Virus record (IMG/VR): IMGVR_UViG_3300025168_000065
Direction: 5' to 3' (one strand)
Length of the DNA: 20,000 bases
Origin: an uncultured virus (IMG/VR IMGVR_UViG_3300025168_000065)
Lineage: Duplodnaviria > Heunggongvirae > Uroviricota > Caudoviricetes > Crassvirales
A program made the position numbers and the translations under genes. Below are positions 3,231 to 9,559 of this stretch, piece by piece; the first letter of the stretch is position 1, and every line of letters starts with the position of its first letter. A model generated the notes under the pieces. It saw only the letters and a list, made by a program, of their open reading frames with translations. It was not told the DNA's origin and did not search any database.

Positions 3231-3488
3231 TTACACAACTACAACAACATCCCTCTCCTGAATAACAGCGTAGGGATTGTCCTCTATTAACATCTCATGA
3301 CCTGCAGCTCCGTCATAGTAAATAATATCTCCAGAGTTAATTACACTCACATCAGTACCAGCCTTTACAACCTCACCCTTCTTGTACCTAAACCCAGAAG
3401 CATCTTGAGCAGATAATAAAAGACCTGACTCAGTTTTTAACTCTTCTTTTATTTTTTTTATTACTATGTACTTTCCTATTGGCTTCAT
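3231..3488 (-). CDS. groES: Co-chaperonin GroES (Cpn10)
   Basis: MKPIGKYIVIK...KTESGLLL...GEVVKAG...GDIIYY...VIQERDVV; adjacent to groEL. Confidence 0.93.
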   Translation of the reverse strand: MKPIGKYIVIKKIKEELKTESGLLLSAQDASGFRYKKGEVVKAGTDVSVINSGDIIYYDGAAGHEMLIEDNPYAVIQERDVVVVV

Positions 3489-3553
3489 ATTGTTTTATGT
3501 TTTCAATTAATTTTTTATCAGAGTCCTCCTTTAAAAATAATGATCTTATAAGC

Positions 3554-5149
3554 TTAATCATCTTTCCCTGCTCTGGCGTGCGTTATAATTGCATTGGTAG
3601 TAAGGATAGTCGTAGCTACACTTATTGCATTAGAGAGCGCCTGACAGGTAACCTTAGCTGGATCAATAACCCCCATCTTAAACATATCTCCCCACTCCCC
3701 TGTCTTTACATTCAATCCTTCATTATTAGCATCATACATAAGCTTTTCGTTATCATCTTCAGATAACTCTAAGCCTGCATTAGAATATATTTGCAACAAA
3801 GGCGCTCGAAGTGCTGTCGCTAAAATCTTACCTGCAATCTTATAGTTCATATCTTCAGCGAATGTAGCTTTTTTATAAAGCGCTACACCTCCCCCTGCTA
3901 CTATCCCTTCCTGTAGTGCGGACCGCACTGCACAGACAGAGTCATCGACTCTGTCGAATTTTTCTTTTTGCTCAATATCAGAGGTAGCTCCAACGTAAAT
4001 ACATCCTATACCACCAACCAAAGATGCGATACGCTCGTTCACAAAGTCTCTCTCGTGCTTAGCAGTTAGTGTTTCTTGCTGTAGTCTAAGCTCTGTCACC
4101 CTGTTCATAGTCTCCTTAGTAATCTCGCCGTTCTTAATTATTATGGCATTGTCTTTCCCTACAATAATTTTATCTGCATACCCTAAGTCCTCAGGTCTAA
4201 TCAATGATAAATCATCTCCAGTCTTTTCTGAAAAGTATTTAGCACCTACTGAGAACGCAATGTCCTGCATTAACTCATGAGACTTGTAGCCGAATGATGG
4301 CACCATGATATTACAAAACTTTAAACCATTACGCTGAACGTTAGCCGCCATAGTATTAATAACATTCTGAGAGCAGTTCCCTATGATAAGAAGCTTCTCT
4401 CCAGCATTAATAATTGGTTTAAGTACATTCTCAATCTGAAGTATGTTGGTTATCTCTGTATCACACAGCAAAACCTTAACACCCTCCATAATACACTCGT
4501 CCTTTCTCTGGTCATTAATAAACATCGTAGAGGTATAACCCCTATCAACCTTTATCCCGTTAGTAACCTCAGAATATGTTTTGTCAGTTTGAGATCTCTC
4601 AACCGTTACAATACCATCCCTACCAACTTCCTTGTAGGCCTCAGCTATAATCTTACCGATCTCTGGATCATTATTAGCAGAGATAGTCGCAATATCCTCC
4701 AGCATATCATCAGTAACTGGGATTGCTCTTTCTTTAATCTCGTCTAAAATAGCTTCTCCCTGCCATCTAATATCTCTAACTATCTCTATGGTATTATCAC
4801 CCTCCTTAATATACTTCTGACCCGCCTTTACTAAAGCCTCCGTCAAAACAATAGCCGTAGTTGTTCCATCACCAGCTACATTAGCCGTCTTCTCCGAAGC
4901 TTGCTTCATCATCCTAACCGCTAAGTTCTCTACAGGATCAATAAGAAATATACTCTTAGCCACAGTAACACCATCCTTAGTCACTGTTAACCCCTGAGTA
5001 TGCTGGGTCGATTCAATTAAAACAGTCTGACCCTGAGGCCCCAATGTTGACTTAACCGCATTAGATATTTTTGAGATTCCCGATATTAGTTTTGTTCTTG
5101 CCTGCTCATCAAACGACAGGTCTTTTGGAATGTATCCTTGTTCTTGCAT
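3554..5149 (-). CDS. groEL: Chaperonin GroEL (Cpn60), phage-encoded
   Basis: TLGPQG, TKDGVTVAK, AGDGTTTA, TISANND, EGIVAGGG and GVIDPAKV motifs; no GGM tail. Confidence 0.97.
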   Translation of the reverse strand: MQEQGYIPKDLSFDEQARTKLISGISKISNAVKSTLGPQGQTVLIESTQHTQGLTVTKDGVTVAKSIFLIDPVENLAVRMMKQASEKTANVAGDGTTTAIVLTEALVKAGQKYIKEGDNTIEIVRDIRWQGEAILDEIKERAIPVTDDMLEDIATISANNDPEIGKIIAEAYKEVGRDGIVTVERSQTDKTYSEVTNGIKVDRGYTSTMFINDQRKDECIMEGVKVLLCDTEITNILQIENVLKPIINAGEKLLIIGNCSQNVINTMAANVQRNGLKFCNIMVPSFGYKSHELMQDIAFSVGAKYFSEKTGDDLSLIRPEDLGYADKIIVGKDNAIIIKNGEITKETMNRVTELRLQQETLTAKHERDFVNERIASLVGGIGCIYVGATSDIEQKEKFDRVDDSVCAVRSALQEGIVAGGGVALYKKATFAEDMNYKIAGKILATALRAPLLQIYSNAGLELSEDDNEKLMYDANNEGLNVKTGEWGDMFKMGVIDPAKVTCQALSNAISVATTILTTNAIITHARAGKDD

Positions 5150-5182
5150 CTTGTTGTGTATTTGATTAAAATTAATTTAAAG

Positions 5183-5190
5183 CAAAGATA
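5183..5190 (-). promoter_or_regulatory. TATCTTTG promoter for groEL-groES
   Basis: caaagata about 33 nt upstream of ATG 5149. Confidence 0.7.
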
Positions 5191-5208
5191 CTAAAAATAA
5201 ATAAACAC

Positions 5209-5392
5209 TATGACAACATTTTAAGTTTTTACTTTCTATTTGTTATATATATATTTATTATTATTATTATTATTTATTATTATATATTTTAGACTTAAAG
5301 TCGTCATCTTGTCATAAATAAATATAATATATTGAAAATCAATTAGTTAGGCCCATGACGACTTTTTTTAAAGTCATCATAACTATGACGAG
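5209..5392. repeat. ATGAC(G/A)A repeat cluster around an AT-rich spacer (origin-like locus A)
   Basis: tatgacaac 5209-5217; aagtcgtcatcttgtcata 5298-5316; atgacgactt 5355-5364; aaagtcatcat 5370-5380; tatgacgag 5384-5392; almost pure A/T spacer 5218-5297. Confidence 0.7.
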
Positions 5393-5407
5393 TCTTGAAA
5401 TATTATT

Positions 5408-5440
5408 AAAAAAAAGAGGTAGACCATAAGCCTACCCCTC
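5408..5440 (-). terminator. Intrinsic terminator
   Basis: Minus strand GAGGGGTAGG-CTTATG-GTCTACCTC-T8, downstream of ORF 5468. Confidence 0.7.
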
Positions 5441-5467
5441 TCACACAACAGAACAAATAAGAAATCT

Positions 5468-5665
5468 TTAGAAGTCTAACTGCCTCCAATTCTTTTTATT
5501 TTCCGCTAACTCAATACCCTCAGCTATACGGTTTATCTTACGATCATTCTTAACCGAACGCTTAATACGAGAAGCCTGAGCTATACCCGTCTCACCATCT
5601 CTACGCTCATTTATAAGTCTTCCGTTCTTTACATATAACCCATCTACATAATCCATTTTTTTCAT
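5468..5665 (-). CDS. Small basic hypothetical protein
   Basis: ORF track; likely start MKKMDY at 5665; TATCTTTG promoter at 5684-5691. Confidence 0.7.
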   Translation of the reverse strand: MKKMDYVDGLYVKNGRLINERRDGETGIAQASRIKRSVKNDRKINRIAEGIELAENKKNWRQLDF

Positions 5666-5683
5666 AGTGCTTTTTATTTTTAA

Positions 5684-5691
5684 CAAAGATA
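5684..5691 (-). promoter_or_regulatory. TATCTTTG promoter
   Basis: caaagata; fifth identical copy upstream of a minus-strand gene. Confidence 0.7.
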
Positions 5692-6128
5692 TAAAATTTT
5701 TTTAGATGTCTCGGGGTTGAGGGTTATTATACGTTATACGCACACACATTGCCTCAGGAAATAGATTTCAAAAAGCACCCCCCCCATGACGATTTGGAAA
5801 TTTTCACCCCAACTTTTTGACGTTTTTGTATGAGCTTCCCGTATGCCGTAGGGATTCCCCTTGTACACTACCTCTATCCCTACCTTACACTCCTGTTGTA
5901 CTCTTAATGTCTACGATTACACCAATACCTTCCCCTCTTTGCAAGGGATAAAAGAGAATATATCTTTAGTTAGATAAAGAGAGATGTCTCTTAATCCCAT
6001 CCCCATCCCCAAAATACCTAAACATATCAACAAATCAATAGATCATTTCGAAAGCACGTAAGATGCTGATAATCAGTTAGTTTCATTTCATTTCATTTAT
6101 GGAACAAGATATTCTTTTGAATTTATAG

Positions 6129-6158
6129 TTGACAATCCAATTATTTATAGTATATTTG
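6129..6158 (+). promoter_or_regulatory. Promoter of the early-type gene cluster (TTG-N19-TATATTTG)
   Basis: TTG at 6129-6131 and TATATTTG at 6151-6158; Bacteroidota -33/-7 arrangement. Confidence 0.75.
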
Positions 6159-6200
6159 TACAGAATTTAAACAATTAATAACTTAAAAGACACACACAAA

Positions 6201-6347
6201 ATGGAACAAAGAGTAGAGTACATTAGACAAGAAATCAGAGTATTGAATCAAGCATTAACATTAGTAAATGAGATAGATTCTCTTTACATTAAAGAAATGA
6301 TAAAAGAAAAGGAAAAATACATTCGCCTGATGAGAATGCAAGACTAA
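6201..6347 (+). CDS. Small helical hypothetical protein, 48 aa
   Basis: Not in track. MEQRVEYIRQEIRVLNQALTLVNEIDSLYIKEMIKEKEKYIRLMRMQD; preceded by the ACACACACAAA leader. Confidence 0.75.
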   Translation: MEQRVEYIRQEIRVLNQALTLVNEIDSLYIKEMIKEKEKYIRLMRMQD

Positions 6348-6356
6348 ACCTCACCA

Positions 6357-6419
6357 ACTACCGAATGGCTCGTACTGAATTAAGTACGGGCTTTTCGTAG
6401 TAGAGGGATATTCCTCGCA
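6357..6419 (+). ncRNA. Structured intergenic RNA motif, copy 1 (long interrupted stem plus GAGG/CCUC hairpin)
   Basis: actac-c-gaa/ttcgtagt outer stem; gctcgtact/agtacgggc inner stem; gagg-gatatt-cctc hairpin; paralog at 7993-8053. Confidence 0.65.
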
Positions 6420-6438
6420 AGATTAAAACACACACAAA

Positions 6439-6921
6439 ATGAATAAGCAACAAGAAGAATTAGCAATGAGATTAGATTTAAAAACACCATACAAATGGGT
6501 AATGGATAATCTAATTCCAAACCAATCATCTGATGTACAAGAGAGATGGAAGATAATGAGTAAAATGGTAGAATTGAATCAGGAATGGGTAGAGGAAGTA
6601 GTAAACAATGGAGATTTAAAGTTATCTGAAGTATTGCATGACTTTAGAGGTATCTACTCAGAGGATGAGCATTTCGTACCAAGAATATCTACTGAAGTTT
6701 CTGATGATAGGGTTAACGGATACACTAACCTTCAAACCTACCGATTATGTTTAGTATTAGATAACGAGCAAGTAGTACCTAATCCCTTAACAAGATTCTT
6801 AGAGTTAGTACAAGAGAATGAGTTTGAATCTAATGATATTGATATTATCAATTGGAATGAGGTAATTGAGAGATACTCTGATAGCATTCTTTTAGAGCAT
6901 TCGTTTTACGCAAACAAATAA
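6439..6921 (+). CDS. Hypothetical early protein; C-terminal half has an NG(Y/W)TNxxT...LxLDNE motif seen in small phage proteins
   Basis: ORF track; ACACACACAAA leader. Confidence 0.75.
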   Translation: MNKQQEELAMRLDLKTPYKWVMDNLIPNQSSDVQERWKIMSKMVELNQEWVEEVVNNGDLKLSEVLHDFRGIYSEDEHFVPRISTEVSDDRVNGYTNLQTYRLCLVLDNEQVVPNPLTRFLELVQENEFESNDIDIINWNEVIERYSDSILLEHSFYANK

Positions 6922-6975
6922 GATACTCTGATGAGGACTCAGTGTCCGAAACACTACGCAAGTAGTGTCAGTATC
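6922..6975 (+). ncRNA. Hammerhead ribozyme, type I (HH1); predicted cleavage after C6969
   Basis: GAUACU-CUGAUGA-GGAC(UCAGU)GUCC-GAAA-CACUAC(GCAA)GUAGUG-UC-AGUAUC: complete core and three perfect stems. Confidence 0.95.
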
Positions 6976-7001
6976 ATAAGATACCAATTAACACACACAC
7001 A

Positions 7002-7211
7002 ATGACAACAAGCGAAAAAGCAGTAGAGGTACTTAAAACCAAGTACGGCATAGATGCAAGAATCTATAAGGACAATGTATACTTAGCAGTATGGAATGAT
7101 GACTTATCCGACACCATAGATGTTGAAGCGTCTAAAGGACAAGTAGAAGATTGGGCATTAGAACATGACAAAGAATGTACTTGGTATGGAGAATATAAAG
7201 CAAAGCAATAG
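7002..7211 (+). CDS. Small acidic hypothetical protein bracketed by two hammerheads
   Basis: ORF track; ACACACACACA leader. Confidence 0.8.
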   Translation: MTTSEKAVEVLKTKYGIDARIYKDNVYLAVWNDDLSDTIDVEASKGQVEDWALEHDKECTWYGEYKAKQ

Positions 7212-7212
7212 A

Positions 7213-7269
7213 GATACTCTGATGATGGATTTAATATCCGAAACTACTCTTAATTGAGTAGTCAGTATC
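7213..7269 (+). ncRNA. Hammerhead ribozyme, type I (HH2, with 1-nt U insertion after CUGAUGA); predicted cleavage after C7263
   Basis: GAUACU-CUGAUGA-U-GGAU(UUAAU)AUCC-GAAA-CUACUC(UUAAUU)GAGUAG-UC-AGUAUC; stems II and III differ from HH1 but keep pairing. Confidence 0.9.
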
Positions 7270-7296
7270 ATAAGATACCAATTTAAATAACACACA

Positions 7297-7521
7297 ATGT
7301 ATAAAACAATGGTTAAAGATTCCCAAGATTTTTGGGGAAAAGTAGCGTCCGAAAATGGATGGAGTATGAATGGTAGAGGATGTACAATATGGATTAATAA
7401 AGACAATGAAGTATTAGATAGTATCTACAACAAAGAAGATAATAAAGAATCTTATATTGTACAAGTAGATGTAGATTATGAAGGTTTCTATGAGAATGAG
7501 GTATTAATTAAAACAATATAG
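7297..7521 (+). CDS. Small hypothetical protein
   Basis: ORF track; AACACACA leader. Confidence 0.8.
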   Translation: MYKTMVKDSQDFWGKVASENGWSMNGRGCTIWINKDNEVLDSIYNKEDNKESYIVQVDVDYEGFYENEVLIKTI

Positions 7522-7523
7522 AT

Positions 7524-7682
7524 ATGAAAGATATATTAGGATTACCGATAAAATGGTTAGCAAGATACTACTACACAATATTGATAGTATGGTTAACATT
7601 AACGATGAGTAGCTGTGGATTAAGATTTGGAGACTACCATGCATGGGAAAAAGATTATAAACAAAAATGTATAAGAAAATGA
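7524..7682 (+). CDS. Small putative lipoprotein, 52 aa
   Basis: Not in track. MKDILGLPIKWLARYYYTILIVWLTLTMSSCGLRFGDYHAWEKDYKQKCIRK; hydrophobic stretch ending in lipobox-like MSS-C. Confidence 0.65.
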   Translation: MKDILGLPIKWLARYYYTILIVWLTLTMSSCGLRFGDYHAWEKDYKQKCIRK

Positions 7683-7981
7683 TGAGATTAAAATTAAGTA
7701 TGATAACATTTAATATGTTAGAGAGTCATTTCAGTAATGACTACGGGAAAAAGAATGGTAATGGTGTAGCTATGCCACTTGGAGATGATAGCTTACATAT
7801 GATTCATAATGAAGGTGCATTAGAGAATTACAAAGAGACGATAACAAAAAAGTTTGGAGATGTTATGGTGTTATTACAGGATCCTGACGAGGTATGGTTT
7901 AACAAGGTAAAGATTGATGACGGAGTATTTCAAGATTATCATAGAAAATATATGCAGAAAGCAATGAATAATAGGAATTAA
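7679..7981 (+). CDS. Hypothetical protein
   Basis: ORF track 7667..7981; start uncertain (7679 by ATGA overlap, or 7700). Confidence 0.7.
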   Translation: MMRLKLSMITFNMLESHFSNDYGKKNGNGVAMPLGDDSLHMIHNEGALENYKETITKKFGDVMVLLQDPDEVWFNKVKIDDGVFQDYHRKYMQKAMNNRN

Positions 7982-7992
7982 CGTGTGTGTTT

Positions 7993-8053
7993 CCATCATC
8001 TAACCTCACTACGAAAGTAGTGGGGATTTGGTGGTAGAGGGATGTTCCTCACA
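7993..8053 (+). ncRNA. Structured intergenic RNA motif, copy 2
   Basis: ccatca/tggtgg outer stem; cctcactac-GAAA-gtagtgggg inner stem; gagg-gatgtt-cctc hairpin; 18/20 identity with 6400-6419. Confidence 0.65.
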
Positions 8054-8071
8054 CAATTAAATTAAATTATT

Positions 8072-8563
8072 ATGAGTAGAAAAGAATTAGAAGCAAAGTT
8101 TATGGAGTTTCCTAAACTGGTAGTAGCAAAGTATGATGTAGGAGAATACATCCAAGACCAAATTAAATTCTTCCAAGATGACAAGCAAGAGTTTCTTGTA
8201 AGTAAACTATGGGATGAAGAGAGAGATGTTGAAAGTGTAACTGATAAAGAAATAGAAGAACACTTCTATGATGATGTTTGGATTAGTGTTCAATGTTATG
8301 AAGACTTTGAGTATGACTTGACTGAAGAGTTTAAAAAACACATAGGTAAAGAAGTTTATGTAGAGGGAAGAAATATGGGATGGAGAAATAGAAGTGGACA
8401 TAAATGTTTCACTATAAATAAACCATTAGACTTGTTTAAAGAAATAGCACCTGAATGTGAACTGACTTATGAAATGGAGAAAGTAACCGATAAAGAGTAT
8501 GAGGTAAGAATTGCACACCACGACTCACCAATGGGAGAATATTATAACTTAAAAATTAAATAG
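8072..8563 (+). CDS. Acidic hypothetical protein (GRNMGWRNRSG, HHDSPMGE motifs)
   Basis: ORF track; TTAAATTATT leader. Confidence 0.8.
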   Translation: MSRKELEAKFMEFPKLVVAKYDVGEYIQDQIKFFQDDKQEFLVSKLWDEERDVESVTDKEIEEHFYDDVWISVQCYEDFEYDLTEEFKKHIGKEVYVEGRNMGWRNRSGHKCFTINKPLDLFKEIAPECELTYEMEKVTDKEYEVRIAHHDSPMGEYYNLKIK

Positions 8564-8565
8564 AT

Positions 8566-8811
8566 ATGAATTGGAAAGAAATGAAAAGTAAGATACTATC
8601 AAATAGTATATTATTAGAGAAACTAAAAAAGTTTCCTAACAGAAAGTTTATTCAGAAGTGTCAGCAAAAATTAGATGCATACAAGAAACCTAAACCAAAT
8701 CCTTTAGATTGGTTTAATCATTTTGTAGATTACATTGAAAATACAGATAGCAATCTTTATAATCAAGCGTGTGAGTATGCCGACAATAAAGAAAAGCAAG
8801 AAAATGAATAG
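8566..8811 (+). CDS. Hypothetical protein
   Basis: ORF track; packed against upstream gene. Confidence 0.7.
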   Translation: MNWKEMKSKILSNSILLEKLKKFPNRKFIQKCQQKLDAYKKPKPNPLDWFNHFVDYIENTDSNLYNQACEYADNKEKQENE

Positions 8812-9211
8812 AGAATTAACATACAATAAGTGGATAAAGTATATCCATGATTATCAATTAAATAAAAATAAAATTATGAAAAAAGATCAAGCGTTAAAAA
8901 AAATCAGTAATATGTTGGGAGACAAACATATACATATATCAGATGAGGTAAAAATAGATGATATAAAGGGAACAAAAGGGAAAGTATATGTAGATAATTC
9001 ATTGTTAATGGAATTAATAGATGAGATTGCTACTCAAATGACAGAAGAAAAATTTGGAGAATACTATCACAATACGGGATTTGATAATGTTAAAGATAGA
9101 ACGTACACTTTAACAGATGAAGCACAGGATTTTTACAATAAAAAGTATGATGAGGTAGAGGGTATGATAAATAACATTACTAACATATATTCAAATAATG
9201 ATGAGCGATAG
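8804..9211 (+). CDS. Hypothetical protein
   Basis: ORF track 8735..9211; ATG start more likely at 8804 or 8876. Confidence 0.7.
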   Translation: MNRELTYNKWIKYIHDYQLNKNKIMKKDQALKKISNMLGDKHIHISDEVKIDDIKGTKGKVYVDNSLLMELIDEIATQMTEEKFGEYYHNTGFDNVKDRTYTLTDEAQDFYNKKYDEVEGMINNITNIYSNNDER

Positions 9212-9277
9212 ATTAGAAAGTAGTTTTGCAGAAATAATAATAGTAATTTTAATAACATTAATAATTTTAATATCAAT

Positions 9278-9559
9278 ATGAAACAGACAAGCGAATTAAT
9301 TAAGGAAGTAGGAAGAGAGGTAGTAATGCTACTACTTGAAAAGAATAAAGCGTATGGAGACACTGCAAATGATCCTCCTAAAATATTTTCTAAACTATCA
9401 GCAAAAGAGGGAATACTTGCGAGGATAGATGACAAGTTAAGTAGGATTAAAACAAGTGGGTTAAACGATAAAACTGAGGATACAATGCTTGATTTAATTG
9501 GATACCTTATATTGTATAGAGTACAATGTAAGAAGGAAAATCCCCCAAATGGGCAGTAA
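9278..9559 (+). CDS. DUF1599 / nucleotide-modification-associated domain 1 protein
   Basis: KNKAYGD...GILARIDDKLSRI...EDTMLDLIGYLIL pattern. Confidence 0.8.
   Translation: MKQTSELIKEVGREVVMLLLEKNKAYGDTANDPPKIFSKLSAKEGILARIDDKLSRIKTSGLNDKTEDTMLDLIGYLILYRVQCKKENPPNGQ

Follow-up and report, generated by a model that had tools for sequence, protein, structure and literature searches.

The 20,000-nt DNA analyzed here (the window; IMG/VR record IMGVR_UViG_3300025168_000065) is a piece of a tailed-phage genome from an uncultured marine phage. On its + strand, a gene for a 69-amino-acid protein, open reading frame (ORF) 7002-7211, lies between two hammerhead ribozyme motifs, HH1 and HH2, spaced 291 nt apart among the small ORFs of a phage operon. 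What would such a pair do to the transcript that carries it? A preliminary description had proposed that the two ribozymes excise a single-gene RNA that could close into a circular mRNA. We find that both motifs are genuine type-I hammerheads, with self-cleavage predicted, and that they are probably intercistronic processing cassettes in an early operon that give rise to linear monocistronic mRNAs.

HH1 occupies positions 6922-6975 and HH2 positions 7213-7269, both on the + strand and both assigned by sequence, fold, and covariance model. In HH1, stem I pairs GAUACU (6922-6927) with AGUAUC (6970-6975). The core CUGAUGA (6928-6934) leads into stem II (GGAC-UCAGU-GUCC, 6935-6947), followed by GAAA (6948-6951) and a 7-bp stem III with a GCAA loop (6951-6968), and cleavage is predicted at a GUC triplet, between C6969 and A6970. 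HH2 is built likewise from stem I (GAUACU, 7213-7218, with AGUAUC, 7264-7269), CUGAUGA (7219-7225), stem II (GGAU-UUAAU-AUCC, 7227-7239), GAAA (7240-7243), and a stem III of 7 bp capped by a 6-nt loop (7243-7262), with the predicted cut at a GUC triplet between C7263 and A7264. Both thus have the conserved hammerhead core of CUGAUGA, GAAA, the A-U pair closing stem III, and GUC. HH2 carries in addition an extra U (7226) between A9 and G10.1, which recurs in an independent module from an IMG/VR relative (L147). An extra U between the same two residues of the CChMVd hammerhead (from chrysanthemum chlorotic mottle viroid) is reported to increase the cleavage rate 3- to 4-fold (PMC3705267). The minimum-free-energy fold of each sequence alone is the three-way junction (−18.8 kcal/mol, z = −3.37 for HH1; −16.8 kcal/mol, z = −3.00 for HH2), with helices I/II/III of 6, 4, and 7 bp, of which stems II and III end in loops and stem I is open. 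The earlier observation that the two ribozymes have the same stem I (GAUACU/AGUAUC) is borne out by the sequence, in which an identity of 23 nt spans the cut sites (6967-6989 = 7261-7283, repeat family D11).

General models did not recover these ribozymes. Rfam at gathering scores gave no match to either hammerhead, and at E ≤ 10 the only match was RAGATH-1-hammerhead for HH2, at 18.2 bits against a cut-off of 56.3. We take the Rfam seeds to leave out this short-stem-I family of phage hammerheads. A loose text motif alone matched four times, a count reached by 31 of 200 shuffles and so not above chance. Because the curated cut-offs returned nothing and the loose motif performed at chance, a covariance model (R1) was built from relatives alone. 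A pattern scan of IMG/VR gave 32 loci with 29 distinct ribozyme sequences, which were aligned with the hammerhead structure imposed and the window excluded. The model matched HH1 at 6921-6976 (69 bits, E = 1.5e-17) and HH2 at 7212-7270 (65.9 bits, E = 1.2e-16), the next best score on either strand of the 20 kb was 12.3 bits, and all 14 modeled pairs are formed in both alignments. Among the 29 relatives, compensatory changes are found in five of the seven stem III pairs and in the outermost stem I pair (6 of the 14 modeled pairs), paired cells amount to 96.1% versus 78.6% in shuffles, and none of 500 shuffles reaches the covariation score. The AUACU/AGUAU stem I is kept in all 29, but the search pattern itself imposed its inner five pairs, which are invariant and carry no information. 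The single modeled stem II pair (G10.1-C11.1) is also invariant, and stem II as a whole occurs in at least eight different sequences with pairing kept in all of them.

Each ribozyme is part of a larger cassette with the order upstream stop codon, type-I hammerhead, cut site, 5-bp hairpin, unstructured A/C-rich leader, and ATG. HH1 begins at the base directly after the TAA (6919-6921) of ORF 6439-6921, HH2 begins one base after the TAG of ORF 7002-7211, and the cut-to-ATG distance is 32 to 33 nt for both. A descriptor search returned 40 distinct modules in 28 contigs. In 31 of these a stop codon (any frame) ends 0 to 6 nt before stem I, and in 37 the first ATG lies 21 to 33 nt past the cut. The predicted hairpin, GUAUC-AUAA-GAUAC, is present on the + strand at 6971-6984 and again at 7265-7278. 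In it, the 3′ strand of stem I pairs with a second copy of the 5′ strand located downstream, and since the same 3′ strand is used, hairpin and stem I are mutually exclusive. Its folding energy is −3.9 kcal/mol, and none of 200 shuffles folds as well. AUAAGAUAC follows stem I in all 13 of the 13 rows with stem I GAUACU, and the 3′ strand can therefore fold back into this hairpin, which in the GAUACU class recurs with seven stem II/III combinations and ahead of several different genes. In two rows whose stem I is GAUAGU, a shifted equivalent, UAUCA-AUAA-UGAUA, takes its place, and the CUGUCU stem I class has the hairpin GACAG-CAAGA/CAAUA-CUGUC.

A similar design idea was seen in an unrelated contig (L031), the − strand of which carries three type-I hammerheads with cuts at 2547, 2925, and 3092, i.e., 378 and 167 nt apart. 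Their stem I is CGCCU/AGGCG or UGCC/GGCG, and after each hammerhead the 3′ strand can fold back as GGC-GAAA-GCC or GGC-GAUAA-GCC (noted by eye, unscored).

Double cleavage is predicted to release a 294-nt RNA (6970-7263, + strand) comprising the leader (6970-7001), ORF 7002-7211, and the 5′ part of HH2 (7213-7263). The excision of a single-gene RNA, as previously described, is thus plausible, in that it follows from two well-supported hammerheads with predicted cleavage, and ORF 7002-7211 would lie on a linear monocistronic RNA because two cassettes are adjacent. The downstream message (7264-7521, + strand) would start with a leader (7264-7296) followed by ORF 7297-7521 (74 amino acids); three relatives (L001, L008, and L009) likewise have a hammerhead-hairpin-leader module ahead of the homologue of this ORF. 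During transcription, the hammerhead would fold first and then cut. Stem I, reduced after the cut to six intermolecular pairs, would fall apart, and the freed 5′-OH end would snap into the local hairpin, making the cut effectively irreversible. Hairpin capture would leave the downstream message with a 5′ end that is defined and structured and with a leader free of context, and the upstream fragment would carry a 2′,3′-cyclic phosphate after its terminal stems II and III. In the excised RNA, the pairs of the 5′ hairpin have a predicted probability of ∼0.87 to 0.89, versus 0.02 to 0.03 for stem I rebuilt with HH2.

Several observations weigh against this account, in addition to the lack of an Rfam match for either ribozyme at the curated cut-offs. 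The 5-bp hairpin is missing from 25 other rows, about half of the family, with stem I UAUACU, AAUACU, AUACU, or one of a few unrelated sequences. Among all sampled phage type-I hammerheads, hairpins of at least 5 bp are not enriched (6 of 49 distinct tails, with ∼4.2 expected from shuffles), so that the post-cleavage hairpin characterizes a subfamily and does not hold generally. When the downstream arm is included, the hammerhead and hairpin conformers of HH1 are nearly equal in energy (−18.8 versus −18.6 kcal/mol), and HH2 reaches its minimum free energy in the hairpin conformer (−20.1 versus −16.8 kcal/mol for the hammerhead alone). By these nearest-neighbor energies, which ignore tertiary contacts and the order of synthesis, the hairpin could limit cleavage and not merely follow it. 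The roles of the 5′ hairpin and the 5′-OH end in stability or insulation are ones that we infer, and the host is only probably Flavobacteriia-like, judging solely by protein similarity to Flavobacterium phages. Finally, RNA data do not reach the ribozymes. Part of 6000-8500 is contained in 16 RNA rows (shares of 0.05 to 0.09), and the four runs examined (X1, X3, X6, and X10) gave nine assembled contig pieces at 6000-6122 and 7297-8500 and none on 6123-7296. These pieces show no joints and no end pile-ups. As assembled contigs off the ribozyme region, they are uninformative on cleavage or circles.

One of the RNA contigs, from run X3 (262 nt, 10 differences), begins precisely with the ATG of ORF 7297 and extends to 7558. 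This start is probably where a relative's leader diverges and is not evidence of an RNA end.

The origin of the ribozyme pair was addressed by comparison with relatives. The nearest (G001, 68% complete, 58% of sampled words shared) has one hammerhead. Window positions 6570-7005 (90% identity) and 7200-7299 (96%) align to the same place in G001, and homology resumes at window position 7495 (98%). Relative to G001, the window appears to have gained the stem III of HH1, the leader, and ORF 7002 at the ribozyme and to have exchanged the start of the next gene as well. One hammerhead in G001 versus two in the window indicates insertion of the cassette with ORF 7002 at the ribozyme/leader module. 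Four further relatives (G002 to G005, 98 to 100% complete) have 2, 1, 1, and 1 hammerheads, none of which brackets a single gene. In G002, a hammerhead with the stem III of HH1 lies before the ORF 7002 homologue, and none comes directly after it. In a further contig (L136), two hammerheads precede the homologue, which continues straight into a leader and the gene that follows, no ribozyme intervening. A hammerhead lies upstream of the ORF 7002 family in 4 of 4 contexts and directly downstream only in the window. The repeated part is just ∼90 nt, made up of the ribozyme ends and the leader (repeat families of 14 to 32 nt), and the whole unit is not tandemly repeated. The shared stem I is explained by recombination of a cassette with its own ribozyme/leader module into a pre-existing module. 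When a cassette enters between two modules, the gene it brings is automatically bracketed by ribozymes that share stem I, and no RNA-level need has to be invoked.

The halves of the hammerhead are mosaic among IMG/VR relatives (L137 to L168), in which a given stem II is combined with as many as five different stem III sequences, and vice versa. These mixed combinations suggest recombination at the conserved core.

Two alternatives to the processing account draw on the energies and the genome comparison given above. The downstream GAUAC arm may be an anti-ribozyme element of a conditional switch, so that a tunable fraction of transcripts is cut and the ratio of polycistronic to monocistronic RNA is set; the input could be transcription speed, translation termination at the stop codon next to stem I, or Mg2+. 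The near-equal conformers of HH1, the favored hairpin of HH2, and the stop codon located 0 to 1 nt from stem I in the window are all consistent with a switch, and regulated cleavage has been suggested for some phage hammerheads in the relevant part of the work of Perreault et al. (2011, PMC3088659). However, about half of the family occupies the same position without the hairpin, the energies that favor it leave out tertiary contacts and co-transcriptional folding order, and no ligand or protein partner is known, which makes a switch unlikely in our estimation. The modules may instead act mainly as DNA, with ribozyme and leader serving as homology patches for swaps of early-gene cassettes and RNA cleavage secondary or decaying. 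The core-region insertion in HH2 would fit decay, as the gain of a cassette and the replacement of a gene exactly at the module relative to G001, the fusion of the ORF 7002 homologue onto the leader and next gene in L136 with the ribozyme missing, and the many stem II/III combinations would fit swapping. Compensatory changes in stems II and III argue instead for selection on RNA structure and not on DNA identity alone, and the extra U of HH2 recurs in L147 and is described as tolerated in the CChMVd hammerhead (PMC3705267). We consider a mainly DNA-level role to be quite improbable; as a contributory one, it is compatible with processing.

The remaining alternative is the circular mRNA. The 5′ AGUAUC of the excised RNA would pair with the GAUACU of HH2, the hammerhead would be rebuilt, and the ends would be joined by the ribozyme or by host RtcB into a translatable circle of 294 nt. 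The chimeric geometry put forward for this is right at the level of sequence, as the freed 5′ end matches the native 3′ strand of HH2 over 23 nt, and the constrained chimeric fold costs only 2.2 kcal/mol (−53.8 versus a minimum of −56.0 kcal/mol). Tandem type-I hammerheads in animals yield circular RNAs (circRNAs) of ∼170 to 400 nt, mostly via RtcB, according to the portion of a retrozyme study that deals with them (PMC7229834), and RtcB is common in bacteria, being found in 10 of 14 control genomes, including Bacteroides thetaiotaomicron. Against this, five related phage records yielded no RtcB, the self-ligation reported for hammerheads of retrozyme RNAs is 1 to 3% (PMC7229834), and the passage of Perreault et al. 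on phage hammerhead clusters gives circular products as not detectable (PMC3088659). The conserved hairpin is predicted to hold the 5′ end of the RNA, and neither the minimum-free-energy fold nor the ensemble brings the ends together. The ribozyme pair is absent from G001, and the repeat of only ∼90 nt falls short of a whole tandem unit. An endless ORF around the circle was also considered and rejected; the three frames contain 2, 8, and 14 stops, and no frame is stop-free.

If stem I served circularization, it might be expected to match between adjacent ribozymes, as the preliminary description suggested for related phages. Relatives provided 15 adjacent pairs, 12 of them usable (L137, twice, and L139 were dropped because the fixed-offset parse misplaced the cut in low-scoring hits). 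The expectation held at short range, where all seven pairs less than 900 nt apart (198 nt in L154 and 487, 496, 506, 517, 770, and 855 nt) keep five to six chimeric stem I pairs. It failed at longer range, where the five pairs at least 900 nt apart have 5, 1, 5, 1, and 0, so that three of the five keep none or one. Neighbors from other stem I classes (GGCAAU, GAUAGU, and GAGAUUAA) differ freely. One member of every adjacent pair was chosen by its AUACU stem I, and the same stem I is kept throughout the family, also in near-complete genomes with a single ribozyme, so that compatibility of neighbors does not single out an RNA-level need. The outcome that the preliminary description named as refuting, stem I differing freely between neighbors, was seen in part of the sample; the comparison neither supports nor cleanly refutes circularization.

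A gene bracketed in the same way was found outside the window. A protein of 141 to 145 amino acids that starts with MGYNTDWNG and has no Pfam family is encoded with hammerheads on both sides in three contigs (L155, 3077-3499; L143, 2556-2981, − strand; and L157, 3082-3516), at 48 to 61% protein identity and with the flanking ribozymes diverged in stems II and III. The gene was not found in the window. With its flanking hammerheads it is a conserved ribozyme-gene-ribozyme unit, a point in favor of the circular reading.

Taken together, the circular mRNA gained no support from this analysis, since the 5′ hairpin competes for the same strand, stem I is a family-wide trait, and the pair is explained at the DNA level. 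The idea is an old one, and the hairpin and DNA-level origin make it less likely here; the locus is a weak candidate, and we hold a 294-nt circle made in this way to be very unlikely. Slimmer still is the chance of the broader version, in which a fraction of the 294-nt product is circularized by an RtcB-type ligase or by religation and is translatable, the conserved stem I enabling this for any neighboring cassettes. If true, the circle would be a natural protein-coding circular mRNA from a DNA phage, encoding a 69-amino-acid early protein.

The surroundings of the ribozymes are consistent with processing of an early operon transcript. The + strand carries, in order, small uncharacterized ORFs, a Sak-like annealing protein, an exonuclease, a primase/helicase, a helicase, and an HNH endonuclease. 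A GroEL-like protein (531 amino acids, phrog_5725, E = 2.1e-134) and a GroES-like protein (85 amino acids) are encoded divergently from this operon on the − strand, within 3231-5149. The primase/helicase (800 amino acids, phrog_28855, E = 4.7e-296) shares 66% identity with its counterpart in an uncultured Caudoviricetes record, and its residues 1-284 are 43% identical to those of Flavobacterium phages. A Flavobacteriia-type host fits A/C-rich leaders without a Shine-Dalgarno sequence. The best sigma-70-like promoter match, TTGACA-16-TATATT at 6129-6156 (+ strand, 11 of 12 positions), is a consensus match only, from a scan whose total of matches is not above shuffles; it lies upstream of the + strand run of small early ORFs and is a candidate start of a polycistronic transcript. 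Consensus matching found no + strand terminator-like site in 5100-9300. With one promoter-like site and no terminator-like site, both ribozymes probably lie inside one early polycistronic transcript. Promoters of the Bacteroidota type have the consensus TTTG-N17-21-TANNTTTG; this pattern was also tried, and its two matches, a number equaled or exceeded in 48 of 200 shuffles, are not near the locus.

The genes next to the ribozymes are poorly represented in databases. ORF 6439-6921 (+ strand, 160 amino acids) has no PHROG or Pfam match and no protein match in the GenBank phage collection, and its 3′ part is 90% identical to G001. ORF 7002-7211 (+ strand) also has no PHROG or Pfam match, and its CA-rich leader has no Shine-Dalgarno sequence. 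Its homologues in two IMG/VR contigs are 82% and 78% identical over residues 1-55, and a distant one in L143 (25% identity, E = 2.8e-5) follows a hammerhead. At the DNA level, window positions 6000-9000 have no match, near or distant, in the GenBank phage collection.

Two further features of the operon were noted. The 5′ strand and the start of the core of the hammerhead are duplicated at 6869-6882 (AGAGAUACUCUGAU, 10.3 bits, family D5), in the C-terminal coding region of ORF 6439-6921 (RYSD motif), ∼50 nt before the hammerhead. Three relatives (L002, L004, and L010) have an upstream copy ∼52 nt before the hammerhead, with an exact 13-nt match, GAUACUCUGAUGA, in L002-type relatives. The copy could act as a decoy strand, be a scar left by recombination, or have arisen by chance. 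A second conserved RNA element is found at 6368-6420 and 7976-8058 (+ strand), in a hammerhead-like position of the same operon, between a stop codon and an A/C-rich leader with its ATG. It has a covarying hairpin of 8 to 9 bp with compensatory changes in six of nine pairs (eight sequences), a U-rich linker, and an invariant GUAGAGGGAU(A/G)UUCCUC. Most copies could also form a long-range helix of AAUUGUGUG with CACACAAUU that joins upstream sequence to the leader, as seen by eye and outside the predicted consensus structure. Seven distinct copies were found in IMG/VR, one of which (L188) matches the second copy of the window, and several share contigs with hammerheads. The element has no Rfam match and is a candidate for a new processing or ribozyme-associated motif.

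The layout of gene-flanking hammerheads has been known in phages since 2011. The parts of Perreault et al. (2011, PLoS Comput Biol, PMC3088659) that describe it report that prophage hammerheads flank single genes or short gene blocks and that tandem sets cleave in vitro and in Escherichia coli, and the authors took the layout to imply processing into single-gene mRNAs. Spliced or circular products were considered there and given as undetectable (data not shown). The window shares with those clusters the close spacing of hammerheads on the coding strand of a phage operon, a bracketed gene that varies among relatives, and the proposed cutting of long transcripts into single-gene mRNAs. As far as the clusters are described in those parts, the window family differs in being type-I with a fixed stem I (N-AUACU), in belonging to marine Flavobacteriia-type phages, and in being missed by Rfam, and one of its subfamilies further has a post-cleavage hairpin that is conserved and a leader that lacks a Shine-Dalgarno sequence. 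A limited literature search on hammerheads in Cellulophaga or Flavobacterium phages, and on phage hammerheads with RtcB or circular RNA, returned no paper on this family. Phages carry thousands of hammerheads, and in the section of a 2019 review that covers bacterial and phage hammerheads, their roles are still listed as open (PMC6765202). This locus adds a clean comparative example in which the ribozyme travels with the leader as a portable 5′ untranslated region (5′ UTR) module and early genes are gained and swapped at such modules. The PeSL (promoter-early stem-loop) cassettes of T4-type phages are mobile regulatory modules of promoter and stem-loop with no ribozyme. As a lead only, the window resembles them in having short repeated intergenic modules where early-gene cassettes shuffle between related phages.

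Metazoan non-long-terminal-repeat retrozymes, as described in the portion of the study that concerns their hammerheads (de la Pena laboratory, Nucleic Acids Research, 2020, PMC7229834), have type-I hammerheads in ∼300-bp tandem repeats expressed as circRNAs, with circularization of 30 to 80% by RtcB versus 1 to 3% by self-ligation. The window is similar in having two type-I hammerheads ∼300 nt apart and monomer ends (predicted here) with 5′-OH and 2′,3′-cyclic phosphate that are able to rebuild a hammerhead. In retrozymes, however, the whole unit is a tandem repeat that is noncoding and highly self-paired, and circles have been shown, whereas the window repeats only the ∼90-nt module, its insert is a protein gene, and its 5′ end is predicted to lie in a local hairpin. 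A parallel to the processing cassette is RiboJ, in which a hammerhead and a 23-nt hairpin ahead of the ribosome binding site insulate 5′ UTRs; in the same context, uncleaved mRNA has been modeled as decaying faster (PMC7536230). In RiboJ and in the window alike, a hammerhead is followed by a hairpin and then the translation-initiation region, and cleavage strips, or in the window would strip, upstream 5′ UTR context. The RiboJ hairpin is separate from the ribozyme, whereas that of the window is formed with the 3′ strand of stem I itself and so is in competition with the active fold. If this hairpin blocks religation or stabilizes the message, it would explain how a reversible ribozyme becomes a one-way processing site and would offer a part ready for use in organisms that work without Shine-Dalgarno sequences. 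RiboJ is synthetic; the window element is natural, its function predicted, and with a hairpin that would capture the new 5′ end, this one subfamily appears to be a natural counterpart of the engineered insulator.

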